64,000 nucleotides of DNA from an uncultured Candidatus Saccharibacteria bacterium (GTDB lineage: Bacteria; Patescibacteriota; Minisyncoccia; Phycocordibacterales; UBA918): the NCBI GenBank assembly GCA_964552045.1, contig CAZKFF010000006.1, positions 34,657 to 98,656 of the forward strand, read 5' to 3'. The notes below the pieces were generated by a model. That model was not told the DNA's origin. It was given only the letters and a program-made list of their open reading frames with translations, and searched no databases. The translations under genes were made by a program, and so were the position numbers. Positions 1 to 39,511 of this stretch are shown here, piece by piece. Every line of letters starts with the position of its first letter. Position 1 is the stretch's first letter.

Positions 1-467
1 ACTTCGAATGCTCCTGCAAGATTCTGCATCCGCTGTTCTTTGCGGAGCGTTGTCTGCGGGGAGGTATTGCGCGTTCGGTACAGCACATCGGTGTATACGG
101 TATGGCGGGCTTCTCCTCTGAGAGCCTGCCGGGCTACGGTCTCCACCTGGTTGTGTCCGCGCTGGCGCAGACGGGCACGCGACAGCGGAACGGGAATGAT
201 GACGAGCGAATCAGTCTGTGACGCCAACCAAGCTGAAAGCAGTGCTGCCAGAAGTCCGGCCGCCTGCGGGTGGTTGTGGTACTTGCACAGGTGAAGTGCT
301 GCGCGCATCTGAGGGTCTTTGAATGAGGAAAGTGCACTGATGTCGGGCAGAACAGTGTGGGCATGCAGTTTGAGCGCAAATTGCTCCTCTGTGCATGCAT
401 CGATGAGAAGCTCATCGTGTGATGGTGGAAACAAAAGCTGCAGCAGAGATGTCAAACGCACTTGCAT
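1..467 (-). CDS. comF: ComF/ComFC-family competence protein (phosphoribosyltransferase-type), partial. The 3' end runs off the window start. ATG on minus strand at 467.
   Basis: Manual minus-strand translation from 467: MQVRLTSLLQLLFPPSH...DSLVIIPVPLSRARLRQRGHNQVETVARQ, typical ComF N-terminal and PRTase-like segments. Not in the ORF track because there is no stop inside the window. Confidence 0.55.
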   Translation of the reverse strand, partial: MQVRLTSLLQLLFPPSHDELLIDACTEEQFALKLHAHTVLPDISALSSFKDPQMRAALHLCKYHNHPQAAGLLAALLSAWLASQTDSLVIIPVPLSRARLRQRGHNQVETVARQALRGEARHTVYTDVLYRTRNTSPQTTLRKEQRMQNLAGAFE

Positions 468-512
468 TGCTTTAAGTATACGATGAGATGATGCTAGAAT
501 GAGCACAAATAT

Positions 513-1601
513 ATGGCGATAGATCTTAAGAATGTTTTTTCATTTTTAAAAAAATCATCCAACCAGTCCCCCGATAAGGTGGTCGGTATAGATTTTGGCT
601 CTTCGTCGATCAAGGTTGCCGAGGTCGAACTTCGCGACGAAGTGCTTGCGCTGAACACGTACGGCGAGCTCCAACTTGGGCCGTATGCCGGGGTAGAGAT
701 GGGGAAAGCAGTGAAACTTCCCACGCCCAAGCGGACAGAGGCACTGATCGACATCATGCGCGAGTCGGGCATATCGGCAAAAAACGGTGTCATGGCTCTG
801 CCGTTGCTCGATAGTTTCGTGACGATCGTATCTCTTGAGATCAAAAAAGACGAAGATATTTCTGCACGGATACCTGTGGAAGCCCGAAAATACATCCCTG
901 TTCCGTTGACCGATGTGACGCTTGAATGGAGCGAATTGTCATCGGAGGAAGAAGAGGGATCCGCCCGTAAGGAAGTGCTCCTTGCTGCCATACAGAACGA
1001 TGCACTTGTTGATATGTCCAGTCTCCTCGGAGCAATACAAATGGTGTCACAACCATCTGAGATTGAGCTGTTCAGCACGCTCCGGGCGCTCACCAGGGAA
1101 TCCGACGACGCGATCGTGATCATAGACATGGGGGCACAGATGAGTAAGCTCTATATCTCGGAAGGAGGATTCCTCCGCCGTATCCATCGGGTGCGGGCAG
1201 GCGGTATGCATGCGACCGAAGCACTCGCACGCTTCCTGAACGTCCCATTGGAAGAGGCTGAGAACAGGAAACGCAACTATACGCCGGGAGTCGCATCGGC
1301 TGAAGAGATCAAGAAGATCGTCGCACAGACATTCGACCGCCCGCTCCAGGAGTTCAGAAGAGTGGTGAGTCAGTATGAACAGCACAGCGGCAAACAGAGC
1401 ACCCGCGTGGTCTTTACCGGCGGCAGCGCGCTCTTCCACGATTTCACCTCGTACGCGAGCTATGTCTTCGACAGGGAAGTGGAGCTTGCCAATCCGTTCA
1501 CCAAAGTAGGATACCCTGCATTCATGGAGGATAAGCTGCGCGAGATCGGTCCGGTGTTCGCAACAGCGCTCGGGGCCGCACTTCGGCCGTTTGAGCAGTA
1601 A
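513..1601 (+). CDS. pilM: Type IV pilus assembly ATPase-like protein PilM (actin-like fold)
   Basis: 362 aa; GIDFGSSSIKVAEV N-terminal actin-like motif; first gene of pilMNO-like operon. Confidence 0.85.
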   Translation: MAIDLKNVFSFLKKSSNQSPDKVVGIDFGSSSIKVAEVELRDEVLALNTYGELQLGPYAGVEMGKAVKLPTPKRTEALIDIMRESGISAKNGVMALPLLDSFVTIVSLEIKKDEDISARIPVEARKYIPVPLTDVTLEWSELSSEEEEGSARKEVLLAAIQNDALVDMSSLLGAIQMVSQPSEIELFSTLRALTRESDDAIVIIDMGAQMSKLYISEGGFLRRIHRVRAGGMHATEALARFLNVPLEEAENRKRNYTPGVASAEEIKKIVAQTFDRPLQEFRRVVSQYEQHSGKQSTRVVFTGGSALFHDFTSYASYVFDREVELANPFTKVGYPAFMEDKLREIGPVFATALGAALRPFEQ

Positions 1602-1656
1602 GCTGTCCACATAACGCGCAATAGGCAAATGCTGAAGTGCGTATAATAGTAATAGT

Positions 1657-2424
1657 ATGATTAACTCTCAAGGTACTTCCTTCATTCCTCAGCGTCCCAG
1701 CAAAGGGAAGGTCAACACGCGACGCGTCCGCAAGATCTACGTCCTTTCATATATAAGTTACATACTCTTCTTTGGAGCGGTGCTTGCAGCGTGTGGCGTA
1801 TTTTTTCTCAATTTATCGCTTGATGCGCAGCTTGAGAAGCAAAAGGAGCTGCTTTCCGCAGAGCGCGACCAGTTCAATCAGGGCGAGATCGAGAGCATCC
1901 GCGAACTGGAGAAGCGTATCAATCTCGCACAAGAAAGACTTGATAACCATATTTCAGTCTTCTCTATATTGGAAGCGCTTGAAAAAAGCGCGGTACAGTC
2001 AATTCTTTATGTACAGTTTGACTATAAGCGTCTCAATGATGGCGCGCCAGTTATTACTTTCGTAGGAAATACCGACCGGTTTGACAGCGTTCTCTTCCAG
2101 CGTGAGATGCTCGAGTCGAATCCTGTTCTTGCCGATAGTACATTCAGTGAGGTAGCGATGAATTCCCGCGAGCTCGAAAATCCGCCGTTTACGCAGAAAG
2201 TAGTCTCCTTCACCTTCGAAAAAGAAGTTGAAGAGGATCTTGTCCGGTACACGCCGCGTGAGGTGAATATTGTGCCTCCGGAAGAAGCGCAGCAGGTCCA
2301 GGATCAGAACGGCCAGCAGACAGCGGATGAGCCTGCGCAGACAGAACAGACACAGACAGAACAGACAACTGATGAAAACACGGAAGCGGAACTTGAGGAA
2401 GATACTAACGTCGAAGGAACATAA
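1657..2424 (+). CDS. pilN: PilN-like pilus assembly protein (N-terminal TM helix, coiled-coil, acidic Q/T/E-rich C-tail)
   Basis: Single TM segment (YISYILFFGAVLAACGVFFL), coiled-coil region, position directly after pilM. Confidence 0.6.
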   Translation: MINSQGTSFIPQRPSKGKVNTRRVRKIYVLSYISYILFFGAVLAACGVFFLNLSLDAQLEKQKELLSAERDQFNQGEIESIRELEKRINLAQERLDNHISVFSILEALEKSAVQSILYVQFDYKRLNDGAPVITFVGNTDRFDSVLFQREMLESNPVLADSTFSEVAMNSRELENPPFTQKVVSFTFEKEVEEDLVRYTPREVNIVPPEEAQQVQDQNGQQTADEPAQTEQTQTEQTTDENTEAELEEDTNVEGT

Positions 2425-2429
2425 AAGGT

Positions 2430-3062
2430 ATGGGATTCAAATTAATTGCACAACTTACGCTCATCGTTGCCGCTGTGGTCATTTTGCTGACCTTCATTCA
2501 GCCGTCGCTTTTGCAGATGAAGAGTACACAAGATGAGCTTTTCCAGTACAGCGAAGCGGTCTCTAAGGCATCGCAGTTTAATGCGCGTCTGCGAGAACTT
2601 ATCGGCATCCGCGATTCATTCGCACAGGAGGACATGGCGGCGCTCGAGAAATTCCTCCCCACAGAGATAGACTCCATAAATATCATGCGGGACATTGAGA
2701 CTGTCTTTAATAACAATAATGTCACTATCACCAGTCTGACTGCAGATGAACCAGTTGATCCCGTCACTGATATTGCCGTTGAGAGCCCTATCATTATTGA
2801 ATCCCAGCAGACAATGAACGGTCTTGCATATCAGGATTTCAAAGTCACCTTCGTTGGGACATATTGGCAGCTGCGCGATATTCTGTTCCAGACTGAGATG
2901 AACAATGCACTGCTTGAGGTCGTGGAACTCAGTTTCGGCGCGTCAAATCAGGATGACGCTGATGATGAGGGCGATACCCCGGTTGTCATTGAAGGTCAAG
3001 ACGGCATATATTCCTTCACCATCACGTATCGTACATACGCACTCCCGTTAACAAGCTTGTAG
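2430..3062 (+). CDS. pilO: PilO-like pilus assembly protein
   Basis: N-terminal TM helix plus periplasmic domain, synteny after pilN. Confidence 0.5.
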   Translation: MGFKLIAQLTLIVAAVVILLTFIQPSLLQMKSTQDELFQYSEAVSKASQFNARLRELIGIRDSFAQEDMAALEKFLPTEIDSINIMRDIETVFNNNNVTITSLTADEPVDPVTDIAVESPIIIESQQTMNGLAYQDFKVTFVGTYWQLRDILFQTEMNNALLEVVELSFGASNQDDADDEGDTPVVIEGQDGIYSFTITYRTYALPLTSL

Positions 3063-3071
3063 AGATCACCT

Positions 3072-3362
3072 ATGTCATCACTTTTACAAAATACAATAGT
3101 CATTGGAGGTATCCTTATACTCGGCGGCTTTGGATATTACCTGTACACCCAGAATACCGGACTTGATGTGTCCAACGGAACCATCAATTCTCAGGTTGCA
3201 GCTGAAACCGCTGATTTCCTGCAGCGGCTCAATGAGTTGAAGGCAATTGAACTCAATGGGGATATTTTTTCTGACCCGCGCTTCCTGTCGCTTCGGCAGT
3301 ATTCATCACCGGTTGCTCCAGAGGCGGTTGGCGGCGGTAATCCGTTCGATCTAAATAATTAA
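3072..3362 (+). CDS. Small membrane-anchored protein in pilus operon (PilP-like accessory?)
   Basis: 96 aa, N-terminal TM helix, tightly packed between pilO-like and pilB. Confidence 0.35.
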   Translation: MSSLLQNTIVIGGILILGGFGYYLYTQNTGLDVSNGTINSQVAAETADFLQRLNELKAIELNGDIFSDPRFLSLRQYSSPVAPEAVGGGNPFDLNN

Positions 3363-3366
3363 TTTC

Positions 3367-5166
3367 ATGGATGTACTGGGACGTTTACTCGAAAATGGAT
3401 CGCTTACTGAAACCGACGTACAAGCAATAGCATCTCTCATTGAAGAGAAAGAAATTTCATATGAAAAAGCGCTCCTGACCCATGGGGTGCCAAAGGAAGT
3501 CGTCCGGAAAGCTCTTGCGGAAGAGTTTGGCGTGGAAAGCTTCATTCTCGAAGAAGGGGGGACCATCAAGGAAGACGTTCTTAACTATATTCCTGAAGAA
3601 TCAGCACGGCACTATCGCATCATGCCGTTGAAGCTCGAGGATGGTGTGCTGCTGGTTGGAGCAAACGACCCGGAGAACCTCCAGGTGCGTGAAGTGCTCA
3701 ATTTCGTGAGCGTCAAGCATAATCTACCGTATAAGCTCGCTTTCATCCTTGATGAGGATATGGAGAAGTATCTTTCTTTCTATGATTCGCTCACGGGAGA
3801 AGTTGATGAGGCATTGGTGTCGCTCGACAGCGATCTCGATGGGGAGATCCTTGCGCAGCGTGAAGCACTCAACGATGAAGATAATCTTGATTATCTCAAA
3901 GAGGATGCCCCAGTAACAAAAATTGTTGCCACTATTTTGCGGTATGCAGTTGATGGCAGTGCCTCTGATATCCATATAGAACCGACGGGTGAGAAAGTGG
4001 TGGTCCGGTTTCGTGTTGATGGCATACTCTCAAAAAGCCTCGAGCTCCCGAAGAACGTACAGTCGGCTGTTGTCGCTCGGGTGAAGATCCTCTCCTCGAT
4101 ACGTCTTGACGAGCGTCGCAAACCGCAGGACGGTCGATTCTCTGCGAACTTCGACGGGCGCAAGATCGATTTTCGTGTTTCCATTCTTCCCACCAACCAC
4201 GGCGAAAAGGTGGTGATGCGTATCCTCGACAATGTCCGGGGCATCAATACGCTCGAAGAAACGGGCATCTCTCCGCATGACCTGCAGACCATACTTCGCA
4301 TGATCAAGGAACCATACGGCATCATCCTCATTTCAGGTCCTACCGGTTCAGGTAAGTCAACCACGCTTTACGCGATGCTCTCTTCAGTGGACCGGTTGAC
4401 CAAGAACGTGCTTTCGCTCGAAGACCCTATTGAATACAATATTCCCGGAGTGAGCCAGTCGCAGGTCCGCCCTGAGATCGGCTACACGTTTGCAAACGGA
4501 CTGCGCAGCGCTTTGCGTCAGGACCCCGATGTCATTATGGTGGGCGAGATCCGCGATAAGGAGACCGCGCAGCTGGCGATCCAGGCGGCGCTCACCGGAC
4601 ACCTCGTCTTGTCCACCATCCACACCAATAACTCCATCGGCGTGGTGCCGCGTCTGATCGACATGGGCGTCGACCCATACCTCATCGCTCCGACACTGAA
4701 ACTTGCGATCGCCCAGCGTCTTGCCCGGCGTCTGTGCCCGAACACGGGAAAGGAAACGCAGGTTGACCCTGCAATGCAGATGATGTTCGACAATGCGTTT
4801 GCAACGCTTCCTGAGAAATTCCACGACCGCATACCGAAGAGCACTACGGTCATGCACCCGGAACCGTCTCCCGGATGTGCGTCGGGCACCAAAGGCCGTG
4901 TTGCGGTCATGGAAGTGCTTGAGGTCAACACCGATATACAAGAACTCATACTCCGCGGCGGTTCAGAAGAGGAGATGTTCCTGGCTGCACGCAAGAATGG
5001 ATTTATAAGCATGCAGGAGGATGCCATTGTCAAGGCGCTCAATCATGTCATCCCCTACGAGGAGGTCAGCAATTTTGGTACGAAGGTAGGTCTTGAGAAC
5101 GTCATCGAGCAGAACGCGCAACCTGTCGATAACCAGAAGTCAAGGGAAGTCACCGATGAAGTATAA
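3367..5166 (+). CDS. pilB: Type IV pilus assembly (extension) ATPase PilB/GspE family
   Basis: 599 aa; GSPII_E N-terminal domain, Walker A GPTGSGKSTTLYAML, Asp/His boxes. Confidence 0.9.
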   Translation: MDVLGRLLENGSLTETDVQAIASLIEEKEISYEKALLTHGVPKEVVRKALAEEFGVESFILEEGGTIKEDVLNYIPEESARHYRIMPLKLEDGVLLVGANDPENLQVREVLNFVSVKHNLPYKLAFILDEDMEKYLSFYDSLTGEVDEALVSLDSDLDGEILAQREALNDEDNLDYLKEDAPVTKIVATILRYAVDGSASDIHIEPTGEKVVVRFRVDGILSKSLELPKNVQSAVVARVKILSSIRLDERRKPQDGRFSANFDGRKIDFRVSILPTNHGEKVVMRILDNVRGINTLEETGISPHDLQTILRMIKEPYGIILISGPTGSGKSTTLYAMLSSVDRLTKNVLSLEDPIEYNIPGVSQSQVRPEIGYTFANGLRSALRQDPDVIMVGEIRDKETAQLAIQAALTGHLVLSTIHTNNSIGVVPRLIDMGVDPYLIAPTLKLAIAQRLARRLCPNTGKETQVDPAMQMMFDNAFATLPEKFHDRIPKSTTVMHPEPSPGCASGTKGRVAVMEVLEVNTDIQELILRGGSEEEMFLAARKNGFISMQEDAIVKALNHVIPYEEVSNFGTKVGLENVIEQNAQPVDNQKSREVTDEV

Positions 5167-5542
5167 TACGGGGATGAAGATCCTTCTGGTTGATGACGAC
5201 ATTTTTCTGCGCGATATGTACGCAACCAAATTCTCTGAACACGGGGATGAAGTCGTCGGCGTACAGGGCGGGGAACAGGCACTCCAGGCTGTGAGCGAGG
5301 AAGCGTTCGATGTGGTTATCATGGACATGGTGATGCCGGGGATGACCGGTATCGATCTCCTGCAAGCGCTGCGCGGACTCGCTTTGCCCACACAGCCCAA
5401 ATGCATCGTGCTTTCCAACCAGGGTGAGGATATGGATATGGAGAAGGCGCGCGAGCAGGGCGCGATAGGATACATTATCAAGGCGGATTCAATCCCGAGC
5501 GAGGTGGTTGAAAAAGTACATCAGTTAGTTACACAACAATAA
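5156..5542 (+). CDS. Single-domain response regulator (CheY/PilH-like REC)
   Basis: MKYNTGMKILLVDDD..VVIMDMVMPGMTG..IIKAD: acidic pocket, phospho-Asp and conserved Lys. Start chosen at ATG 5156, overlapping the pilB end by 11 nt. Confidence 0.8.
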   Translation: MKYNTGMKILLVDDDIFLRDMYATKFSEHGDEVVGVQGGEQALQAVSEEAFDVVIMDMVMPGMTGIDLLQALRGLALPTQPKCIVLSNQGEDMDMEKAREQGAIGYIIKADSIPSEVVEKVHQLVTQQ

Positions 5543-5544
5543 TT

Positions 5545-6615
5545 ATGGCAACAGTAGACTACAAGCGAGAGCTCAAAGATCTTATAGACATCGTCGTCAG
5601 CGAGAACGGTTCAGACCTCCATCTGGCGACCAATTCGCATCCGATAGTTCGCGTTGCCGGTGCACTCATTCCGCTCCTGAAAAAGCCGATCCTTACCAAT
5701 ACTGATGTCGATGGCTTCGCCCGCGTGCTTATGAGCACTCAGAAGTATGAAGAATATACCAAGAACTTCGAAGTGGACTTTTCATACGCCAACGCCGACG
5801 GTGTCCGTTTCCGCGGCAACGGCTTTTTCAACACAGGAGTACAGTCGATCGCACTTCGATTGATCCCGAACGTCATCCGAACGCTTGAAGAGCTCGGCCT
5901 GCCGACCATCCTTGAGAGTTTCGTTCAGCGGCCGCAGGGATTCTTTTTGTGCGTTGGTCCGGTCGGACAGGGAAAGTCAACAACGCTCGCTGCCATGGTT
6001 GAGCTCATCAATCAGACGCGTGGTGGGCACATCGTCACCATTGAAGACCCAATTGAATATATCTATGAACCAAAGAAAGCGCTCATCGCGCAGCGTGAAG
6101 TGGGGGTCGATACGGTCAGTTTCGAAACGGCGCTCCATTCGGCGTTCCGCCAGGACATCAATGTGATTCTCGTCGGGGAAATGCGCAACTCGGAGACTAT
6201 CTCCACTGCGGTGACTGCTGCTGAAACCGGACACCTCGTCCTTTCAACACTCCACACGAACAATGCCGCGCAGACCATCGACCGTATCATCGACTCGTTC
6301 CCGGCAGGACAGCAGGACCAGATACGCGTACAGCTCGCAGGTTCGCTTGCCGGCATTTTCTCGCAGCGCCTCATCCCGAAGATATCTGGAGGCCTCGTTC
6401 CTGCGTTTGAGCTTCTTATAAACAACAGTGCAGTGGCTAACCTCATCCGTGAGAGCCGCACCCACGAGGTGCAGACGGTCATCGAAACCGGCCTCGAGCA
6501 CGGCATGATAGACATGAATCGTTCGCTCGCACAGCTTGTTAAGGACGGCATCATCACGGTCGAGAATGCATTTGCGTATTCGCCAAACCCGAAAGGTCTT
6601 GAACGCTTAATGTAA
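5545..6615 (+). CDS. pilT: Twitching motility (retraction) ATPase PilT
   Basis: 356 aa; GPVGQGKSTT Walker A, PilT-type C-terminal region; adjacent to pilB/pilC. Confidence 0.9.
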   Translation: MATVDYKRELKDLIDIVVSENGSDLHLATNSHPIVRVAGALIPLLKKPILTNTDVDGFARVLMSTQKYEEYTKNFEVDFSYANADGVRFRGNGFFNTGVQSIALRLIPNVIRTLEELGLPTILESFVQRPQGFFLCVGPVGQGKSTTLAAMVELINQTRGGHIVTIEDPIEYIYEPKKALIAQREVGVDTVSFETALHSAFRQDINVILVGEMRNSETISTAVTAAETGHLVLSTLHTNNAAQTIDRIIDSFPAGQQDQIRVQLAGSLAGIFSQRLIPKISGGLVPAFELLINNSAVANLIRESRTHEVQTVIETGLEHGMIDMNRSLAQLVKDGIITVENAFAYSPNPKGLERLM

Positions 6616-6620
6616 ACAAT

Positions 6621-7829
6621 ATGCTTTTCAAATACAAAGCCATAGACCAGCACAATGCATCGCGGGAAGGAACCGTTGAGGCCGTGAATGTTGAGGCTGC
6701 AATCTCGACCGTACAGAAAAGAGGGTACACGATCATTTCCATCGATCCGATTGAAGAGAAGACCAGTTTCTACAACATCGATATCAATTGGTTTCAGAAT
6801 ATCTCCAATAAGGATATCGTTATTCTCTCGCGGCAGATAGCCACGCTCTTCGAGGCGCAGGTCTCGGCTTTGCGCATCTTCCGTCTCCTTGCCTCGGAGT
6901 CGGAGAATCCGCAGCTGCGCATTGTGCTGACGGGCATCGGAGACGATCTGCAGGCCGGCAGCTCGATCTCGCGTGCTCTGTCGGTGCACCCGGAAGTGTT
7001 CTCGACGTTCTATATCAGCATGGTCCGGTCGGGAGAGGAGACCGGTTCCCTTGAGAAGTCCTTCATGTATCTGGCTGATTATCTGGACCGTTCGTATCAG
7101 ATCGCTTCAAAAGCGCGCAATGCACTCATCTATCCGGCATTCGTGGTCGGTACGTTCGTGCTGGTGATGGGGCTTATGTTCACCATGGTCATTCCGCGCA
7201 TCAGCCAGATCCTTGTGGATTCCGGACAAGAATTGCCGATCTATACCAAGATCGTCATGGCCATTTCATTCTTCTTCAGCCAGTACATCGCCTTCATCAT
7301 CGTACTGCTGGCCATTGGAGGCTTCTTCATTTGGAGGTTCAGCCGTACGGAGGTGGGAAGCCGAGCGTTCGATGAACTCAAGATATCGGTTCCGTACATT
7401 GGCACTCTCAACCGCAAGCTGTATCTCACGCGCATCTGTGACAACCTTTCGACCATGCTCGGCAGCGGTATCTCCATGGTGCAGGCTATTGAGGTCACTG
7501 CTGACGTCGTGGACAATGAGGTGTACAAGGAGATATTCAACTACGCGCTTTTGGAGATCAAAGGCGGGCGTTCGTTCGCCGATACTATATCAGAATATCC
7601 AGAGATACCCGGTGTGCTCGCGCAGATGGCAAAAGTGGGTGAGGAAACCGGTAATCTGCCAGAAATACTGCAGACACTCGCGAAGTTCTACCAGCGCGAA
7701 GTGGACAACGCGGTTGATACACTCATCGGCCTTATTGAACCGGTCATGATCGTCATGCTCGGACTCGGCGTCGGCGTGCTGCTTGCTTCAGTGTTGATGC
7801 CGATCTACAATCTTACCAATACCATCTAG
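6621..7829 (+). CDS. pilC: Type IV pilus platform protein PilC (GspF family)
   Basis: 402 aa; duplicated GspF domains, polytopic membrane protein. Confidence 0.9.
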   Translation: MLFKYKAIDQHNASREGTVEAVNVEAAISTVQKRGYTIISIDPIEEKTSFYNIDINWFQNISNKDIVILSRQIATLFEAQVSALRIFRLLASESENPQLRIVLTGIGDDLQAGSSISRALSVHPEVFSTFYISMVRSGEETGSLEKSFMYLADYLDRSYQIASKARNALIYPAFVVGTFVLVMGLMFTMVIPRISQILVDSGQELPIYTKIVMAISFFFSQYIAFIIVLLAIGGFFIWRFSRTEVGSRAFDELKISVPYIGTLNRKLYLTRICDNLSTMLGSGISMVQAIEVTADVVDNEVYKEIFNYALLEIKGGRSFADTISEYPEIPGVLAQMAKVGEETGNLPEILQTLAKFYQREVDNAVDTLIGLIEPVMIVMLGLGVGVLLASVLMPIYNLTNTI

Positions 7830-16125: not shown

Positions 16126-16725
16126 ATGCTACCTGATAATGATATTGTCTATGATTGGTACAGCATTGATGCTGATTTCTTTCGGAATATATTTGATTTC
16201 TTCTTCGGCGGCGGCTTTTCCTTTGACGGTTTCGTAGAGTGGCTGTTCACGATCTGGACACTCTATTCCATACTTGCATTCATCATCTCAGGCCTATTCA
16301 TTTTCGGCATAGTCTATGCGTACATCCGCATCAATCAGATGAGCGAAGAGGAGGAGGAAAGGCTGCATGAGCAGGAACAGATGTGGAAGGAGCTCCACGG
16401 CGGCCGCATCGAGAATGAACGCTGGCAGAACGTGCAGCTGCACCTGCAATCCGGTAACCCTAACGACTGGAAACTTGCCATTATTGAGGCTGATGTCCTG
16501 CTCGAACGCATGCTTGATAAGGCCGGCTATGCAGGCAATACGGTGGGGGAGAAGCTCAAAAGCGCTTCAGCACGGTCGTTTGCAACGCTCGATGATGCCT
16601 GGCAGGCGCACCGGGTGCGCAATCAGATCGCCCACGGCGGCGCCGATTTTATTCTGACGCAGAAGGTTGCCCAAGAAACACTCGTCCTCTATGAGCGCGT
16701 CTTCAGGGAATTTGATGTCATATAA
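16126..16725 (+). CDS. Membrane-anchored hypothetical protein with C-terminal HEPN-like (DUF4145-like) domain
   Basis: TM segment (LFTIWTLYSILAFIISGLFIFGIVYAYI) then soluble domain containing HRVRNQIAHG (R-N-x3-H, HEPN-type motif). Confidence 0.5.
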   Translation: MLPDNDIVYDWYSIDADFFRNIFDFFFGGGFSFDGFVEWLFTIWTLYSILAFIISGLFIFGIVYAYIRINQMSEEEEERLHEQEQMWKELHGGRIENERWQNVQLHLQSGNPNDWKLAIIEADVLLERMLDKAGYAGNTVGEKLKSASARSFATLDDAWQAHRVRNQIAHGGADFILTQKVAQETLVLYERVFREFDVI

Positions 16726-16761: not shown

Positions 16762-16974
16762 TTAGTTTTTCTTGGGGGTATGTGCCTCCAAGAGCTGCAG
16801 GAAGTGCGTCAACGCTGCTTGTGCTTCTTGCAGTCGTCGCACCATCTTCCTGCTTGCGTCAGCGTACGCCCGCGGGAAGCTGGGGATGAGCTTGCCGTTG
16901 TCGGACATGGTGTCCACGTCGGTAAGTGAACGAGCCGCGACGTCGATCTTGGAGATCTGGATGGCTGCAGACAC
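16762..16974 (-). CDS. Hypothetical small protein (GTG start), weak
   Basis: 70-aa ORF with GTG start; its start overlaps the inverted tRNA-fMet fragment; no recognisable domain. Confidence 0.2.
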   Translation of the reverse strand: MSAAIQISKIDVAARSLTDVDTMSDNGKLIPSFPRAYADASRKMVRRLQEAQAALTHFLQLLEAHTPKKN

Positions 16975-16999
16975 CGGTTCGATTCCGGGCCTTTCGCAA
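16972..16999 (+). repeat. Inverted partial copy of the tRNA-fMet 3' end (T-arm plus acceptor)
   Basis: acaccggttcgattccgggcctttcgca vs tRNA 3' end CCCCGGTTCGATTCCGGGCCCCGCA; on the strand opposite the tRNA gene. Confidence 0.6.
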
Positions 17000-17043
17000 A
17001 GAAAAGAAAAAGACCTGCCAGTGGCAGGTCTTTTTCTTTTCTT
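16998..17043. terminator. Bidirectional terminator (gacctgccagtggcaggtc stem flanked by A/T runs on both sides)
   Basis: Perfect 8-bp stem with symmetric aaagaaaagaaaaa / tttttcttttctt flanks. Confidence 0.7.
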
Positions 17044-17044
17044 G

Positions 17045-17115
17045 TTGCGGGGCCCGGAATCGAACCGGGGTCTGGAGGTTATGAGCCTCCCGAGGTACCT
17101 CTCCTCTACCCCGCT
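17045..17115 (-). tRNA. tRNA-Met (CAU), initiator-like: A1·A72 mismatch, two of three G-C pairs in anticodon stem, 4-nt variable loop, CCA not encoded
   Basis: Manual fold: AGCGGGG-TA-GAGG-AGAGGTA-CCTC-G-GGAGG-CTCATAA-CCTCC-AGAC-CCCGG-TTCGATT-CCGGG-CCCCGCA-A. Confidence 0.7.
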
Positions 17116-17240
17116 ATATGTTTTTTACCTTCGCTATACGTCGCTCCACATGAGTCCTTTCGTTGTTGAACCGCAGAAAATCAAGGTAGGAAGACTATAC
17201 GCCATTTATATGAAGTATGCAAATCGATACGGCACATAAA

Positions 17241-17276
17241 GAATGCCGTGGCGCGCAAGGTTGCGCGTCACGGCAT
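17241..17276 (-). terminator. Terminator hairpin downstream of the E2-E1 operon
   Basis: gccgtgacgcgcaaccttgcgcgccacggc imperfect 14-bp stem followed by attcttt on the minus strand. Confidence 0.55.
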
Positions 17277-17318
17277 GTGCTTGAAAGATCGGTTGAGTCC
17301 TGGGCTCAGTCGGGTGGC

Positions 17319-17468
17319 TCACCCCAGCCGGGCGCGCGGTTCCTGCTCGGCGTCGGGCCTGGACTTCAGCGTGGACCCGGACCTGGCGTCGGCGGGCGCA
17401 CTGACGATCGAGGAAATATCGGTTACCTTACTGGCCCCAAGAGCGGCCATGCCTTCTTGCATGCGCAT
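17319..17468 (-). CDS. Candidate 49-aa Gly-terminated small protein downstream of E1 (speculative)
   Basis: AAGGAG 7 nt upstream of ATG (minus 17468); product MRMQEGMAALGASKVTDISSIVSAPADARSGSTLKSRPDAEQEPRARLG; lies in a ~70% GC segment and has low-complexity composition, so it could be spurious. Confidence 0.25.
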   Translation of the reverse strand: MRMQEGMAALGASKVTDISSIVSAPADARSGSTLKSRPDAEQEPRARLG

Positions 17469-17547: not shown

Positions 17548-18243
17548 TTACCATACTGACGCCTTCAGTTCCCATGGGGAGAAGGTGAGCCGGAGATGGT
17601 TGGCGAACTCGTTGGTTTTGGCAACGTGGTGGATCATCTGCTGAACGGCCATGCTCGCGGTAATTGTCACCGCGGTGATCACCGACTGGTGTCCGCCGCA
17701 GCCTGCCTGGTCGTTCGCGTCCGCATCCGGGAACCAATATTCTTCCCAGATCGCGATGTGCTCCTCGTTGTTAGGGTCGAGGGTGAACACGATCGCGTTG
17801 CCTGCATCCATGCGCGTTTCGATGAGGAGCTCGACATCAGGATTCCTCCAGATGGAAGTTTCGCAGATGTTCTTGCGTGCCTGCATCGTATCGAGACAGG
17901 TGAACACCACGCCCGAAAGCGGGATACTTCCCTCTACGAACTGCGGATGGGCTCGGGCGGTATTGCCGCCGCTCCATGCTGCGAACTGCTGTGCGAGCGC
18001 CTCGACCTTCTTCTGGCCGATGTGCTCTGTGCTGTACGCCTGGTTGGCGATATTGTGCGGCTCTATGGCGTCGCCGTCATAGAGATCGAGTGTGTTTTGC
18101 GGATGCGTCCCGACGCCGAGCTTGGCAAGGTGGAGCGCCACATGGCTCCCGACACCCCCTGCGCCGATCAGGTGCAGGGGCTTGTTGAATGCATGCCGGT
18201 TAAAGAGCGTGTCGTGCCGCGTAGTATCAAGACCCATGGTCAT
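17548..18243 (-). CDS. E1-like adenylyltransferase (ThiF/MoeB/HesA family)
   Basis: 231 aa; LIGAGGVGSHVALHLAKLGVG Rossmann motif, DGDAIEPHNIANQ, C-terminal AGCGG; ATGA overlap with the upstream E2-like gene. Confidence 0.8.
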   Translation of the reverse strand: MTMGLDTTRHDTLFNRHAFNKPLHLIGAGGVGSHVALHLAKLGVGTHPQNTLDLYDGDAIEPHNIANQAYSTEHIGQKKVEALAQQFAAWSGGNTARAHPQFVEGSIPLSGVVFTCLDTMQARKNICETSIWRNPDVELLIETRMDAGNAIVFTLDPNNEEHIAIWEEYWFPDADANDQAGCGGHQSVITAVTITASMAVQQMIHHVAKTNEFANHLRLTFSPWELKASVW

Positions 18244-18905
18244 TGCCCCTCCTTCAGAGGCCAGTATTCGATGCGTGCATCGGGATATTGTCCTTCGTCG
18301 ACAGTATGGAGCGCCCTTACGAGCATCCGCACGGCCGGACTGATCTGGCCTTCGGTCAGATACTCATCGAGGATGTCCTTGCCGGAGGCCATGCAGAAGA
18401 TGTTCCGGCTGTTGATATGCGGGTGATGGTACGAGATCTCGATCTCGCCGCCCTCGAGCCTTTTGGACATCGGGGAGGTGATATTGCACAGGCGCACCAG
18501 CTTGTTCTTGCGGTTGATAAGTATGATGAACTCGCCGATACTGTGCTCCTTGCCGGTGCACGGGTCTGTTATGTAGACGTGCTTGGTACCGAGCATGAGC
18601 TCGAAGCTCTCTTCGCTCTCGCGAAAGGCGATATGCGTGATCTCCGGTATGCCCATGAGCTCCCGCAGGTCCTTGAGGATCATCGCGGGGTTGCCCCTGT
18701 TGATCCTGCTTTGGCAAAAGTGGACATAGTGCCGCGCGATCGCTTTGAACTCTGAGGTCTCTTCAACGGGGACCTTCTCTTCATGAAGCGGAGGGTTGTG
18801 CACTCGCTGCAGCCTTTGGAAGAAATTCTCCATTGAAGTCACTCCTACATGTGGTTGTACTGGTCTGAAGCGAGCATACGCCTCATGACAGAAATTGACA
18901 AGCAT
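18240..18905 (-). CDS. E2-like ubiquitin-conjugating (UBC-fold) protein, candidate catalytic Cys
   Basis: SYHHPHINSRNIFCMASGKDILDEY...ISPAV matches the UBC signature YHPNI-x4-G-x-IC-x-DIL...WSPAL; AAGGA SD before ATG 18905. Confidence 0.6.
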   Translation of the reverse strand: MLVNFCHEAYARFRPVQPHVGVTSMENFFQRLQRVHNPPLHEEKVPVEETSEFKAIARHYVHFCQSRINRGNPAMILKDLRELMGIPEITHIAFRESEESFELMLGTKHVYITDPCTGKEHSIGEFIILINRKNKLVRLCNITSPMSKRLEGGEIEISYHHPHINSRNIFCMASGKDILDEYLTEGQISPAVRMLVRALHTVDEGQYPDARIEYWPLKEGQ

Positions 18906-18954
18906 CAGTGATCCTTTAGCGGATGAGCCGTTTTTATGCTATAACAGCAGTCAT

Positions 18955-19653
18955 ATGCAATGTGTAATTCTCGCTGCCGGAAAAGGCACGCGTCTGCGTC
19001 CGCTTACAGAAAATCTGCCCAAACCGCTGGTGCAGGTCGCGGGTAAGACGCTTCTCGATCATATTGTTGAGGCGGTTCCGAGTTCGATCGATGAGCTCAT
19101 TATCGTGACCGGATATCTCGGACACATGATACAGGAGTATTGCGGGGAGGAATTCCACGGACGAAAAGTGACCTACGTGACCCAAGAAGAGCAGAACGGG
19201 ACAGCGAAGGCATTGTGGCTGTGCAAAGACCTTATCAAAGGACGCTTTCTGTTTTTGTTTGCTGACGATATCCACGGCAAGGAAGATTTGGCCCGCGCCA
19301 CTTCTTTCACCCGTTCGCTTCTGGTGGCTTCAGTTGCCAACCCGGAGAAGTTTGGCATCGTTGTCCGCAACCCCGACGGCACGCTCGGCTTGATGATCGA
19401 AAAGCCGGAGCATGCGCCAAGTAATTGTGCGTCAACCGGAGCAATGGTGCTTGATGAACATATTTTCAAATTCGAACCGCAGACGCCGGTAAAGGAGGAA
19501 TATTACCTCACCGAGGTCATTGAGCGGTATGCGCAGGACTACCCCATTGCTGTGGTTGAACAGAGCAAGTGGATCCCGATCGCCACGCCTGAGGATGTCG
19601 AGAAGGCCAACGCGCTCTTCAATATAGATACCGTTCCTCAGATGGAAGTGTAA
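18955..19653 (+). CDS. Sugar-phosphate nucleotidyltransferase (NTP_transferase family, short form)
   Basis: MQCVILAAGKGTRLRPLTENLPKPL signature G-x-G-T-R-L-x-P-L-T; 233 aa. Confidence 0.8.
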   Translation: MQCVILAAGKGTRLRPLTENLPKPLVQVAGKTLLDHIVEAVPSSIDELIIVTGYLGHMIQEYCGEEFHGRKVTYVTQEEQNGTAKALWLCKDLIKGRFLFLFADDIHGKEDLARATSFTRSLLVASVANPEKFGIVVRNPDGTLGLMIEKPEHAPSNCASTGAMVLDEHIFKFEPQTPVKEEYYLTEVIERYAQDYPIAVVEQSKWIPIATPEDVEKANALFNIDTVPQMEV

Positions 19654-20354
19654 TGAGCGTCACTATGCAATGCGTCATCATTTGTGCAGGCAAGGGGACA
19701 CGAATGCGTCCCTTAACGGATACCACCCCCAAGCCGATGATCAAGGTCTGCGGCAAGCCGATCTTGCAGCACGTTATCGAAGCGCTGCCGCAGGAGATAG
19801 ACGAGCTTATCCTGGTTGTCGGGTATCTGAAAGAACAGATCGAAGTCTTCTGTGGAGACACGTACCAGGGCAAGAAGGTACGCTATGTGACCCAGGAGAA
19901 TTTCGCCGGCGGCACGGGTGATGCGCTCTTGTGCGCCAAAGACCTGGTCCGGGGGAAGTTTATGTTCATGTTCGCGGACGACATTCACGGAAAAGAAGCA
20001 CTGTTGCAGCTGGTGCAATACGACAATGCGATTCTGAGCGCCTACTCGCATACCCCTGAGCGGTTTGGCGTTCTGGTGCAAAATATAGATGGCTCCCTTA
20101 AGGAAATACTCGAAAAGCCGGAGAACCCGCCGTCGAATCTCATCAACACAGGGGTTTTTGTTGCGGGAGAAGCACTCTTCAGTTACCAGGTGCCAGTCAG
20201 CAGCTCGGGCGAATTGTATGCAACGGATATGCTGACCGCGTATGCGAGTGATCACAAGCTCCAGGTCATAGAACAGGTGCAGTGGCTTCCGATCGGTTAC
20301 CCGGAACATATCACTGAGGCTGAGGCGATCCTGTGCCCGACACAGATTGATTGA
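19653..20354 (+). CDS. Sugar-phosphate nucleotidyltransferase paralog
   Basis: MQCVIICAGKGTRMRPLTDTTPKPM; tandem paralog of the previous gene; TAATG junction. Confidence 0.8.
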   Translation: MSVTMQCVIICAGKGTRMRPLTDTTPKPMIKVCGKPILQHVIEALPQEIDELILVVGYLKEQIEVFCGDTYQGKKVRYVTQENFAGGTGDALLCAKDLVRGKFMFMFADDIHGKEALLQLVQYDNAILSAYSHTPERFGVLVQNIDGSLKEILEKPENPPSNLINTGVFVAGEALFSYQVPVSSSGELYATDMLTAYASDHKLQVIEQVQWLPIGYPEHITEAEAILCPTQID

Positions 20355-20391: not shown

Positions 20392-20466
20392 TGTCGATGT
20401 AGCTCAGTTGGTTAGAGCATCTCACTCATAAAGAGAAGGTCGCAGGTTCAATTCCCGCCATCGACA
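20392..20466 (+). tRNA. tRNA-Met (CAU) elongator-type (or tRNA-Ile2/lysidine)
   Basis: GTCGATG-TA-GCTC..GAGC-A-TCTCA-CTCATAA-AGAGA-AGGTC-GCAGG-TTCAATT-CCCGC-CATCGAC-A; close to E. coli elongator tRNA-Met. Confidence 0.75.
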
Positions 20467-20512
20467 CAAATACAAAAAGCCCCGACAAGGGCTTTTTGTA
20501 TTTGTGTCGATG
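20467..20512. terminator. Long perfect palindrome / bidirectional terminator that incorporates the tRNA 3' end
   Basis: tcgacacaaatacaaaaagcccc-gacaa-ggggctttttgtatttgtgtcga. Confidence 0.7.
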
Positions 20513-20638
20513 AAGAACAGTCTGGGAGACTGTTCGTCGGGAATTGAAGAGAGTGAGTATATCGCACGCAGCTTGCGAGTACGATACGAGCGACGGGGCA
20601 GCGAGTTCTTATGAGCTTTGAGAATTAGAACTGGCGCC

Positions 20639-20657
20639 ACTTCCCGCCATCGACACC
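20639..20657 (+). repeat. Direct partial copy of tRNA-Met 3' end (ttcccgccatcgacac)
   Basis: 16-nt identity with 20451-20466; followed by hairpin aaccgccgctgggcggtttt. Confidence 0.65.
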
Positions 20658-20699
20658 AAGAAACCGCCGCTGGGCGGTTTTCCACTGTCGCATAACCGC

Positions 20700-20745
20700 G
20701 CAGTATACAAAAAAGCCCCGTTCGGGGCTTTTTTGTATACTGCGC
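20700..20745. terminator. Palindromic bidirectional terminator adjoining tRNA-Asp
   Basis: ccgcgcagtatacaaaaaagccccgttcggggcttttttgtatactgcgcgg. Confidence 0.7.
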
Positions 20746-20816
20746 GGTAGACGGGACTTGAACCCGCAACCTCCCGCGTGACAGGCGGGTGCTCTAACCA
20801 GTTGAGCTACCACCGC
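20743..20816 (-). tRNA. tRNA-Asp (GUC)
   Basis: GCGGTGG..CCCGC-CTGTCAC-GCGGG..TTCAAGT..CTACCGC-G; G73 discriminator typical of Asp. Confidence 0.8.
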
Positions 20817-20878
20817 AGTGCGCAGAGTATAGCGGTTTTGCTCAATATTTGCAATTACTGCTGGTACAATACAAAGGT

Positions 20879-21484
20879 ATGCAATTCATCACTTCGTCCA
20901 GGGCCGTACTGGCGTTCAGCACAGCCTACCTCATCCTCGGCGGGCTTTATTTTCTTCAAGACCTGAACTTTGAATTTGTTATATATGTAGGAGTCATTGT
21001 CGCTGCATTTGGACTCTTATTCGGGACTCTACCGATAACAAAATTGCCCACTTCCATTCTCTGGCTTATCAGCATCTGGGGACTCCTTCACATACTCGGC
21101 GGATCGGTGCCGACCCCAGACGGCGTGCTGTTCGCATACCGCATCTATCCGTTCGTTGATCTCGGCGGGGAGTTCTATATTCTCAAATATGACCAGGTGG
21201 TACACGCATATCTCTACGGCGTTATGGCTGTGGTATTTTTTCATGTGCTTACCCGCACGATCAACGCCGCCGGCCCGGCGTGGATCATCGTGCTCCTTGC
21301 GGTGATGGCCGCTATGGGTGTATCAGCGCTCAACGAGATCATGGAATTCCTCATCGCCATATCGCTTGAGCGCAACGGCGTCGGCGGCTATGAGAATGCA
21401 ATGCTCGATCTCATCTTTAATTTCGGCGGGGCAGTTACGGGGATTGCTCTCCTGCTTCTCTTTAAGCACAATACACGGCAATGA
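20879..21484 (+). CDS. Polytopic membrane protein, hypothetical
   Basis: Multiple TM helices; start at ATG 20879 preferred (tacaat -10-like box and aaagg upstream). Confidence 0.5.
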   Translation: MQFITSSRAVLAFSTAYLILGGLYFLQDLNFEFVIYVGVIVAAFGLLFGTLPITKLPTSILWLISIWGLLHILGGSVPTPDGVLFAYRIYPFVDLGGEFYILKYDQVVHAYLYGVMAVVFFHVLTRTINAAGPAWIIVLLAVMAAMGVSALNEIMEFLIAISLERNGVGGYENAMLDLIFNFGGAVTGIALLLLFKHNTRQ

Positions 21485-21864
21485 CCGACGAAGCATTTTT
21501 GAAACTGGTCGATGCGGGCATTGATGCGCTGCGGGATGATGTCAGGGAAAGAATGGGCAACGTCGCCATCGTCATCGCAGACGAGCCGAGCATCGAGCAA
21601 AAAGAAGAGAACCGCATCAAGGACACCGATGTGCTTTTCGGACTGTATGAAGGCGTGCCGCAAACGGAGCGGGGAGTCGAGGACTTCCCGATGCTTCCCG
21701 ATAAGATAACCATTTTCAAGAATGCCATCCTGCACGCGTACAGCGATCCTGAAGATATCCGGCAGTGCGTGGAGAACACGGTCTGGCATGAGGTCGCCCA
21801 CCATTTTGGCATGGATGAGGATGAGGTGGCACGAGAGGAGTTCAGACGGGGAAAGACCCTGTAG
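21481..21864 (+). CDS. Zincin-like metallopeptidase (HExxH; DUF1025-like)
   Basis: WHEVAHHFG HExxH motif, 127 aa. Confidence 0.65.
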   Translation: MTDEAFLKLVDAGIDALRDDVRERMGNVAIVIADEPSIEQKEENRIKDTDVLFGLYEGVPQTERGVEDFPMLPDKITIFKNAILHAYSDPEDIRQCVENTVWHEVAHHFGMDEDEVAREEFRRGKTL

Positions 21865-22164
21865 CTATGCTTCGGGAGTTTCTTTCCGGCCACCATTTCT
21901 GAGTTCGAAGAACAAGAGTACTCCGCCTCCAAGCGCACCGGCAAAGCCAAGCGGTACGCTGTAGAACACAAGCCAGCCGAACATCCCCATAAGCGAGAGC
22001 AGTCCTCCTATGTCGCCAAAGATGGTTGGACACATAGAGGTGCCCGACTCATCGAGTTGACATCCGAACAGAGACGCCGCAAGACCAGCCAGCAGGACGC
22101 TTGCCAGAGGAAGGATCGCAGTTATGATGCTGAGTATGAGGATTCCTATGGCTGCTTTTTTCAT
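21865..22164 (-). CDS. Small membrane/secreted hypothetical protein
   Basis: MKKAAIGILILSIITAILPLASVLLAG signal/TM; Gly-rich C-terminal half. Confidence 0.45.
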   Translation of the reverse strand: MKKAAIGILILSIITAILPLASVLLAGLAASLFGCQLDESGTSMCPTIFGDIGGLLSLMGMFGWLVFYSVPLGFAGALGGGVLLFFELRNGGRKETPEA

Positions 22165-22203
22165 GATGTGTAATGCGCTACTGCTAATAAATCTTGCGAT
22201 TTG

Positions 22204-22276
22204 AGCCACCTCGCAGGATCGAACTGCGGACCTTTGCGTTACGAATGCAATGCTCTACCAACTGAGCTAAGGTGGC
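22204..22276 (-). tRNA. tRNA-Thr (CGU)
   Basis: GCCACCT..TTGCA-TTCGTAA-CGCAA..CGCAG-TTCGATC-CTGCG-AGGTGGC-T; A31·C39 mismatch. Confidence 0.65.
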
Positions 22277-22468
22277 GTGGCCTCTATCCTAGTATATGAG
22301 CACTTTGTTTTCAATGTATTATTTGGTATTCTTCCTGCGTCAGTTTGCAGCTACGAGTTCCACCTCTCTGCAAGCCGGCAGTGGCCACCGCGGTAGGACA
22401 ACGCCCATACAATGCGTTCGTTCAGCCAGGGTCTGCGACCGTTCTCCCCAGCGGTGGCCACTCTCTTC

Positions 22469-22541
22469 GCCAATGTAGCTCAGTTGGTAGAGCACGCCCA
22501 TGGTAAGGGCGAGGTCATCAGTTCAATCCTGATCATTGGCT
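22469..22541 (+). tRNA. tRNA-Thr (GGU)
   Basis: GCCAATG..CGCCC-ATGGTAA-GGGCG..ATCAG-TTCAATC-CTGAT-CATTGGC-T. Confidence 0.8.
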
Positions 22542-22546
22542 CACTA

Positions 22547-39488: not shown

Positions 39489-39511
39489 TGCTCATTGTGT
39501 TGCATAATACT

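Follow-up and report, generated by a model that had tools for sequence, protein, structure and literature searches.

A three-gene cassette encoding a divergent E2-like protein, a minimal ThiF-type E1 and a glycine-ended mini-protein: a candidate pared-down ubiquitin-type pathway in uncultured bacteria

The subject of this study is a compact minus-strand gene cassette in a 64-kb stretch of DNA (hereafter the window; our statements on its gene content are limited to those 64 kb), which comprises, in the order of reading, a gene for an E2-like protein with a ubiquitin-conjugating (UBC) fold, a gene for a minimal single-domain ThiF-type E1, and a gene for a 49-residue protein that is the candidate modifier and E1 substrate. 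The E2-like gene occupies 18240..18833(-) and encodes 197 aa plus stop. Its longest open reading frame (ORF) runs from the first ATG over 18240..18905(-) and would give 221 aa, the form in which it had been described in the initial annotation; since all homologues begin M-x-N-F-F, matching the ATG at 18833, and since a GTAGGAG Shine-Dalgarno sequence lies 7 nt 5' of that ATG, translation probably begins there, and the start at 18905, rejected on these grounds, is probably not used. The E1 gene (17548..18243, minus strand, 231 aa) is coupled to the E2-like gene by a stop/start overlap, ATGA, at 18240..18243(-), with GAAGGAGG as Shine-Dalgarno sequence inside the end of the E2-like gene, and the two genes overlap or sit 0–3 nt apart in every related locus. 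The third gene, at 17319..17468(-), encodes the low-complexity protein MRMQEGMAALGASKVTDISSIVSAPADARSGSTLKSRPDAEQEPRARLG, followed by its stop, with the codon of Gly49 at 17322-17324. A GC-rich hairpin with a U-rich stretch at 17232..17280(-), of −33.8 kcal/mol in RNA folding and z −3.95 versus shuffled sequences, is a probable intrinsic terminator that a strict consensus terminator scan did not call. The hairpin had been taken to follow the E1 gene directly; it is real, but it lies 3' of the small ORF, and the transcription unit therefore consists of the E2-like, E1 and small-protein genes. On the other side, an intergenic region (18834..18954) separates the cassette from the first of two divergently oriented NTP-transferase genes and contains sigma-70-like −35/−10 elements on the minus strand at 18901..18873 (TTGTCA-17-TATGCT), a consensus match only.

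The E2-like protein is a genuine but very divergent UBC fold with its candidate active site intact, in which a histidine replaces the asparagine of the canonical HPN motif. A word-indexed search yielded only a dozen relatives; when 1.84 billion cluster representatives were searched exhaustively with a profile, 403 were found at E ≤ 1e-3 (clustering at 50% identity), mostly standalone proteins of 160–210 aa and in some cases proteins of 440–765 aa that carry the domain C-terminally or close to the C-terminus. Among the 159 relatives that we aligned to count conservation, G100 is invariant (159), and C147 (156), P138 (155), H139 (152), W191 (151), P192 (147), N117 (144), G144 (130) and H137 (128, with Ala in 23) are retained in most; the family signature reads IGxF...N...[HA]PH[IV]xxxGxxC...WP. 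The AlphaFold model, computed from 11 sequences (predicted local distance difference test, pLDDT, 83.3; predicted template modelling score, pTM, 0.77), speaks for the UBC/E2 fold, with its N-terminal helix, four-stranded antiparallel meander and C-terminal helices. A small profile of the family could be aligned with UBE2D2 in the active-site segment only (E 2.6e-4), and with the 159-sequence profile, hhalign gave a 94-column alignment to five eukaryotic E2s at a probability of 85.5% (E 5.7e-6), which pairs IGEF with the GGxF strand, HPH (residues 137-139) with HPN and Cys147 (codon 18393-18395; residue 171 of the 221-aa form) with the catalytic cysteine (UBE2D2 C85). In the segment HPHINSRNIFC (18393-18425, minus strand) the spacing is HPH-x7-C, H139 aligns with the Asn of HPN, and the cysteine stands about eight residues past the motif, as in catalytic E2s. 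The canonical UBC family (Pfam UQ_con, PF00179) and the Pfam Prok-E2 families do not match the protein, and a comparison with PDB sequences gave a chance match only. Of the nearly residue-for-residue agreement with the eukaryotic UBC signature claimed at the outset, the quoted motif is real and exceeds chance, but it is HPH rather than HPN; the further similarity of ISPAVRMLV to WSPAL was rejected, being not conserved in the E2-like family. As a separate observation, many standalone members (P0070, P0092, P0105, P0110, P0120 and P0125) end after the WP in a ...GG-x-[DN]-A tail, e.g. WPLAKNQGGRDA, and in one of the related loci discussed below (L023, 3005-3589) the co-encoded small protein likewise ends ...NA. 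Through this tail, the E2-like proteins might be substrates of processing or conjugation in their own right.

The 231-aa protein is unambiguously an adenylyltransferase of the ThiF/E1 superfamily, with 66.3 bits against Pfam ThiF (PF00899; cut-off 28.1) over residues 24-217, which, together with the alignment of its partner to E2s and the candidate catalytic cysteines of both, bears out the assignment of the pair in the initial annotation. Its Rossmann motif, GAGGVGS, spans residues 27-33, and its adenylation residues are DGD/HN..NQ/K79/D118; in all 47 homologues used for conservation counts the GxGxxG motif, the ribose-binding acidic residue, the lysine and the Mg-binding aspartate are present, and G27, G29, G32, D56, D58, N64, Q68, K79, D118, R123, R144 and Cys182 are invariant. 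A profile of 23 homologues searched against the PDB matched ThiF best (1.6e-12), followed by UBA5, the active adenylation domains of UBA1/UBA6, MccB, PaaA, BubCD and Cap2, and a Foldseek search with the AlphaFold model (pLDDT 91.7, pTM 0.90) likewise ranked ThiF first (template modelling score, TM, 0.70-0.74; probability 1.00), then the BubCD and Cap2 E1 domains, PaaA and UBA5. The sole internal segment of low confidence in this model, 180-182, is a flexible loop that directly precedes the long helix 188-207 and contains Cys182 (codon 17698-17700). Judged by sequence pattern, this site, just before a helix of the GVxGxxxG type, is presumably the position of ThiF Cys184 and MoeB Cys187, where larger E1s insert their CYS domains. 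The sequence AGCGG (17692-17706, minus strand), formerly read as C-terminal, represents residues 180-184 of 231 and thus belongs to this loop before the last long helix.

That ThiF is the closest solved structure and also the closest sequence relative of this similarly small, single-domain enzyme, that its best NCBIfam match is a ThiF model (PRK08644, 58 bits), and that the candidate substrate ends in glycine would all suit a sulfur carrier system of the ThiS/ThiF, MoaD/MoeB or TtuB/TtuC type, in which the small protein is thiocarboxylated for cofactor synthesis or tRNA thiolation. We nevertheless deem this the least probable of the explanations considered here, and hardly credible. All NCBIfam equivalogs compared (ThiF, MoeB, TcdA, SAMP E1, 6A-MBL Cap2 and PRTRC ThiF) score far under their cut-offs (PRK08644 58 against 159, adenyl_thiF 42 against 275, moeB 18 against 377), so that the protein is no orthologue of a named enzyme and does not turn out to be a housekeeping MoeB/ThiF, a possibility that had been raised from the beginning. 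Unlike ThiF and MoeB, moreover, the enzyme lacks a CxxC zinc site, and it is accompanied neither by a beta-grasp carrier with a GG end nor by biosynthetic neighbours: the downstream protein is only 49 aa long, is probably not beta-grasp and ends LG, and the operon lacks a rhodanese domain, a cysteine desulfurase, ThiG/ThiH and MoaE. It also has an E2-fold partner with an invariant cysteine, for which we know of no role in sulfur carrier pathways.

The presence of MccB and PaaA among the sequence and structure neighbours of the E1, next to which a short, precursor-like peptide is encoded, invites comparison with pathways for peptides that are made on ribosomes and then modified post-translationally (RiPPs). 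In such a pathway the ThiF-like enzyme would adenylate the peptide, as for microcin C or pantocin A, and its partner, instead of being an E2, would act in tailoring or as a scaffold enzyme; ThiF-like enzymes occur widely among RiPP clusters (PMC12250964). Since only ~20 residues precede the Rossmann motif, with the alignments reaching only residues 108-200 of MccB and 121-205 of PaaA, the E1 does not possess the N-terminal peptide-clamp or RiPP recognition element (RRE) domain of these enzymes. The conserved module includes no exporter, immunity gene or protease, only three genes are kept across genomic contexts, and the partner is a UBC fold with an invariant cysteine. A RiPP pathway is therefore, in our judgement, quite improbable.

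The initial annotation had noted, in passing, that a small glycine-terminated ORF downstream might be involved, and this suggestion has been strongly reinforced. In other assemblies, gene callers annotate a product of 49–50 aa ~80 nt past the E1 gene. We read nine loci that do not contain a gene for a JAB (JAMM-motif) peptidase, i.e., the window and loci L006, L009, L011, L013, L017, L018, L021 and L023, and in all nine a homologue of the small ORF is located directly 3' of the E1 gene, in eight preceded by an AGGAG-type Shine-Dalgarno sequence 6–9 nt upstream (none is clear in L023). Substitutions between orthologues concentrate at third codon positions (e.g. 14/9/30 for the window versus L009), which supports the small ORF as a real gene. 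Its product ends exactly in ...[RS]-[LQ]-G in 8/9 loci, with the conserved tail E-P-x-x-[RS]-L-G; the best-conserved internal element, V-D-[IV]-S-x-[LIF], is found in the middle of the protein. These proteins are 46–57 aa long, devoid of aromatic residues, and composed to 61–73% of Ala, Gly, Ser, Pro, Gln, Glu, Lys and Arg (69% in the window), compared with 41–52% in the beta-grasp ubiquitin-like proteins (Ubls) of the related operons described below and 58% in Pup, so that the composition of the window peptide is closer to Pup than to the beta-grasp Ubls. A beta-grasp modifier is expected to have at least ~60–70 residues and a C-terminal glycine; the small proteins have the glycine at their very end in eight loci, but their shortness, their composition and their lack of aromatic residues argue against a beta-grasp fold. 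An Uversky charge-hydropathy plot was set aside as uninformative because the net charge is low.

It is then of key importance for the role of the small protein that E1 homologues at 32–41% identity occur in fuller operons, encoding a long E2-like protein, a JAMM/JAB peptidase, an E1 and a beta-grasp Ubl, which we found in metagenomes, in a metagenome-assembled genome (MAG) of Planktothrix and on huge-phage contigs, and which apparently constitute an uncatalogued operon family. In locus L020, an E2-like domain forms the C-terminus of a 535-aa protein and a second protein, of 276 aa, has an exact JAMM motif (HSHx7SxxD); an E1 and a 77-aa ThiS-like protein ending ...VAG|AYSA are encoded as well. 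L022 encodes an E2-like protein, a 333-aa JAB, an E1 and an 85-aa Ubl ending ...KG|NDV. In the Planktothrix MAG (L015; DATNPN010000029.1, 1632-9139) a seven-gene cluster includes a 105-aa Ubl ending ...KG|NR, an E2-like domain at the C-terminus of a 614-aa protein, an E2-like paralogue of 229 aa, a 433-aa JAB, an E1 and a 796-aa ClpB-like double-AAA+ ATPase. The paralogue does not contain the HPH motif and is possibly an inactive, UEV-like protein. A ClpB-like ATPase also accompanies the JAB and the E1 in L019, and its occurrence in both clusters hints that tagging is coupled to unfolding. Two huge-phage contigs from IMG/VR complete the set: on L025 (193 kb; 2924-7626), a pair of E2-like paralogues of 473 and 458 aa is accompanied by a protein of 369 aa with the JAMM motif and by a ThiF-like E1 of 233 aa; on L024 (488 kb; 454-4615), the E2-like domain is internal to a protein of 584 aa, next to which a JAB-like protein of 537 aa and an E1 of 256 aa are encoded. 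Nothing useful came of a Pfam search with ten long-form family members or of Pfam and PADLOC searches with E2-like, JAB and Ubl proteins of the long form, and Pfam, PADLOC and PHROGs contain no model for the long-form E2-like and JAB proteins scanned from loci other than L024 and L025. As Pfam misses these proteins, the JAB assignment rests on the E...HxHx7SxxD motif.

The long-form operons share with the window cassette a homologous E1 with the same invariant cysteine in the same loop, a homologous E2-like domain with the same signature, an E2-like gene upstream of the E1 gene and, in L020 and L022, a modifier gene directly 3' of it. They differ in that their E2-like domain is C-terminal in proteins of 450–765 aa, whereas that of the window is a standalone protein of 197 aa, and in that they encode a JAMM peptidase and a 77–105-aa beta-grasp modifier, whereas the window encodes no peptidase and a 49-aa low-complexity protein. 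The window cassette is a JAB-less derivative with a low-complexity mini-protein in the Ubl position. In the JAB-bearing operons with a Ubl, whose E1s are homologous at 35–40% identity, the Ubl extends 2–4 residues past the conserved glycine (AG|AYSA, KG|NDV, KG|NR), whereas the 46–57-aa protein in the modifier position of the JAB-less loci ends at glycine in 8/9 cases. The presence or absence of the JAB peptidase thus tracks the need for C-terminal trimming, a correlation that carries the most weight among our arguments for the small protein as the substrate of the E1.

On the strength of these sequence comparisons, we consider it an evenly poised proposition that the locus is a three-gene operon for a pared-down ubiquitin-type pathway, in which a peptide would be conjugated via its C-terminal glycine through an E1-to-E2 thioester relay. 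In the mechanism that we infer, in each of its chemical steps as well as in its substrate and its targets, the E1, which is presumably homodimeric, as are ThiF, UBA5 and Cap2, would bind ATP-Mg and the tail ...EPRARLG of the 49-aa protein and adenylate Gly49; Cys182 on the flexible, crossover-type loop would then take over the peptide as a thioester and hand it to Cys147 of the UBC-fold protein, where HPH would stand for the canonical HPN; and the E2-like protein would finally move the peptide to a nucleophile of a target protein, most likely a lysine, with neither an E3 nor a peptidase taking part. Recognition by the E1 would occur via the C-terminal tail, as for Cap2 with the tail of the CD-NTase, and the tag would be disordered and Pup-like in character, with ubiquitin-like chemistry. 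Because the tag already ends in glycine, no JAB-type processing peptidase would be needed, and none is encoded. It is tempting to extend this proposal, more tentatively and with the balance leaning somewhat against the extension as a whole, to an intrinsically disordered tag of ~50 residues ending ...RLG without a beta-grasp fold, serving a vertically inherited housekeeping modification in uncultured bacteria, probably Patescibacteria, that arose by loss of the JAB and replacement of the Ubl from the larger, uncatalogued E2-like/JAB/E1/Ubl operon family that huge phages also carry.

Several observations weigh against this proposal. Pfam (E ≤ 1), NCBIfam, PADLOC and PHROGs give no match for the E2-like protein, and a Foldseek search of its model against the PDB returned no significant match for the UBC fold, the best being the UEV domain of TSG101 at E 0.3. 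The E1 has an asparagine (HNIANQ) where the NLxRQ motif of ThiF and MoeB has arginine. That the small protein is disordered is probable as judged from its length and composition only. In L023 the small protein keeps a V-D-V-S-N-F core but ends ...KVTNA instead of glycine, with no clear Shine-Dalgarno sequence, and with only 64 kb of the genome in view, a beta-grasp Ubl or a JAB may be encoded elsewhere. The last two points also fit the explanation that the E1/E2-like pair is genuine while the small protein serves as regulator, adaptor or target, the true Ubl (or another protein C-terminus, as in CBASS, see below) being encoded elsewhere; so do the mid-protein rather than C-terminal location of the best-conserved element of the small protein and the GGxxA tails of standalone E2-like members, which hint at other substrates. 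The small gene is, however, in the Ubl position in all nine JAB-less loci, eight of its products end LG or QG with the EP-x-x-[RS]-L-G tail, and JAB presence or absence matches the need for trimming. As the initial annotation had stated for the immediate vicinity, neither a JAB nor a beta-grasp Ubl is nearby, and indeed the entire window contains no JAMM motif, no JAB or Ubl relative and no second copy of any component. We hence consider a role of the small protein other than that of the modifier unlikely, yet a serious alternative.

In the window, the genes are arranged in the order two divergently oriented NTP-transferases, E2-like, E1, small ORF, tRNA-Met, a 200-aa protein, GatA, GatC, LigA and pilins. 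The initial annotation had placed the pair in an island next to tRNA-fMet, with a possible function in defence. The gene order of the window recurs, including the tRNA-Met, in L006, L011 and L017, although the identity of their E2-like proteins to that of the window is only 38–47%; that both flanks and the tRNA keep their order at such divergence indicates vertical inheritance, and a tRNA-associated island was rejected on that ground. In other lineages the triad is located between an FtsA-like/ribosomal-protein cluster and AlaRS (L013), adjoins Sua5 (L021), or adjoins FtsX and CTP synthase (L023), so that the nine JAB-less loci span four genomic contexts, with only the three genes common to all. 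The NTP-transferases were likewise rejected as a part of the module, since they are adjacent in one lineage only and are absent in L013, L021 and L023. The other window genes are of housekeeping type (PilB, LigA, GatCA, CTP synthase, a class I aminoacyl-tRNA synthetase (tRNA-synt_1) and a GlmS-type amidotransferase), and the GC content of the cassette, 0.58–0.60 versus 0.50–0.58 around it, is unremarkable. Gene structure, folds, conserved catalytic residues, linkage of the three genes and synteny are what the present analysis shows. Since the cassette is vertically inherited at housekeeping loci, a constitutive cellular role, in protein turnover or regulation, is likelier than a mobile antiphage defence.

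A defence system of the Bil, Bub or cyclic oligonucleotide-based antiphage signaling system (CBASS) type on a mobile island at tRNA-Met would nonetheless be in keeping with the facts that Bil and CBASS Cap2 are defensive and that Bub has been suggested to be so (PMC10557695, PMC11601596), that the E1 gives partial PADLOC matches to Cap2-type E1-E2 models and a weak one to BilD, that an inverted 56-nt copy of the 3' half of the tRNA lies nearby, and that remote relatives of the long form are accompanied by ClpB-like ATPases and are present on contigs of phages. Against this stand the conserved synteny of flanks and tRNA, the occurrence of the triad among ribosomal, AlaRS, FtsX and CTP-synthase genes in other lineages, the absence from the window of an integrase, a neighbouring defence gene or a compositional anomaly, the lack of a PADLOC model for the E2-like protein, and the absence of the parts that define each of the three systems. 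In sum, we judge the defence explanation decidedly unlikely, and the island suggested in the initial annotation has not been substantiated.

With type II CBASS (Cap2/Cap3), in which Cap2 is an E2-E1 fusion, the cassette shares the minimal ThiF-like E1 domain, E1 domains of Cap2 being among the top structural neighbours (TM ~0.67-0.75), the cysteine-based E1/E2 chemistry (in the cassette, candidate cysteines) and a substrate that is apparently not of the beta-grasp type, whose flexible C-terminal tail is recognised in Cap2 (PMC10557695). In the account of Cap2 that this source offers, a non-Ubl protein, the CD-NTase, is conjugated via its C-terminus, which is a precedent for the tail-based conjugation proposed here. 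In contrast to CBASS, E1 and E2-like proteins are separate in the window, the PADLOC E1-E2 models cover only ~65–85 Rossmann residues, CD-NTase, effector and Cap3 JAB are absent, the candidate substrate is a 49-aa peptide, and the context is a housekeeping one, with NTP-transferases, a tRNA and GatCA as neighbours of the cassette. Bacterial systems are variable in their enzymes. The four-gene Bil operons encode, besides the E2 BilB, a multidomain E1 of the IAD-AAD-CYS type (BilD), and a beta-grasp Ubl (BilA) and a JAB (BilC) are present in every case; Bub has no catalytic cysteines, operating with Tyr/Ser oxyesters, and always comprises the DUF6527 protease BubE (PMC10557695, PMC11601596). These defining features of Bil and Bub (BilABCD, BubABCDE; classes 6c, 6d and 6e of Iyer et al. 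2006) are missing from the window cassette, which keeps both candidate cysteines: its E1 is a single domain of 231 aa with only a weak, partial PADLOC match to BilD, the window has neither a JAMM motif nor a Ubl relative, both cysteines are conserved (E1 47/47; E2-like 156/159), and a DUF6527 gene was found in no related locus or operon.

With pupylation by Pup and PafA (and with UBact), the cassette shares a small, compositionally disordered tag (in the cassette, a candidate tag) encoded together with the ligation machinery. Pup is joined via the side chain of its C-terminal glutamate by a glutamine-synthetase-like ligase, without an E1 or E2. The window enzymes belong instead to the ubiquitin-type E1 and E2 families, and the peptide has no sequence similarity to Pup.

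A number of further features surround the cassette. The two sugar nucleotidyltransferases reported upstream are confirmed as tandem paralogous genes at 18955-20354 (plus strand), which score 119 and 99 bits with Pfam NTP_transferase and are oriented divergently to the cassette. The inverted copy of the tRNA 3' end is also real: it forms a 56-nt inverted repeat at 16965-17077 (arms 16965-17020 and 17022-17077, 86% complementary) that is made up of the 3' half of the tRNA-Met gene (17044-17115, minus strand) and a GC hairpin flanked by A/T, GACCTGCCA/TGGCAGGTC, a probable bidirectional terminator. The acceptor stem of this tRNA has the C1-A72 mismatch of bacterial initiator tRNAs, and L011, judged from six-frame translations, seems to have a comparable partial copy in inverted orientation. 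The 200-aa protein next to the tRNA (199 aa; 16126-16725, plus strand), formerly described as membrane HEPN-like, does have an N-terminal hydrophobic segment and a C-terminal ...AHRVRNQIAHGG that fits the HEPN Rx4-6H pattern, but has no Pfam match at E ≤ 0.001; counterparts of 201–209 aa are found beside GatA in L006, L011 and L017. At 20393-22542, four further tRNA genes (Met, Asp, Thr-CGT and Thr-GGT) are interspersed with a gene for a DUF2238 membrane protein and with a small gene (21481-21864), the syntenic counterpart of which in L017 is recorded as Zincin_1; the entire arrangement is shared with L017, which is further evidence of conserved synteny. A class A RNase P RNA at 39508-39909 (plus strand) scores 105.8 bits, barely above the gathering score of 100, which suggests a divergent molecule.

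As to the taxonomic range of the family, the genome collection contains a single related genome, which is a MAG, two metagenome scans yielded no related loci, genes identical to those of the window occur in the SRR118438xx samples, and one long-form family member is annotated as 'Patescibacteria group bacterium'. Iyer et al. (2006) define operon classes 6a–6e, in none of which there is a JAB-less triad without a beta-grasp protein (PMC1779556), and we found no description in the literature of such an E1/E2 cassette in the candidate phyla radiation (CPR)/Patescibacteria, nor of a disordered E1/E2 modifier. What appears to be new is thus a minimal E1-E2 cassette, the modifier of which is apparently a short disordered peptide, together with an uncatalogued family of E2-fold proteins.

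This E2-fold family, with 403 clusters and absent from Pfam, NCBIfam, PADLOC and PHROGs, links operons of bacteria with those of huge phages. To our knowledge, what is attached by all characterised E1/E2 systems is a Ubl of the beta-grasp type or, in the case of CBASS, a large enzyme, and all characterised bacterial ones include a peptidase and are linked to phage defence. The window cassette departs from each of these rules in combining an E1 and an E2 with no peptidase, no Ubl and a mini-protein that already ends in glycine, encoded at housekeeping loci of reduced genomes. If the pathway proposed here is correct, E1/E2 chemistry would be independent of the ubiquitin fold, the cassette would represent the smallest natural system in which E1-E2 transfer could be dissected and from which peptide tagging could be engineered, and protein tagging would be a core function in a poorly understood radiation of bacteria.

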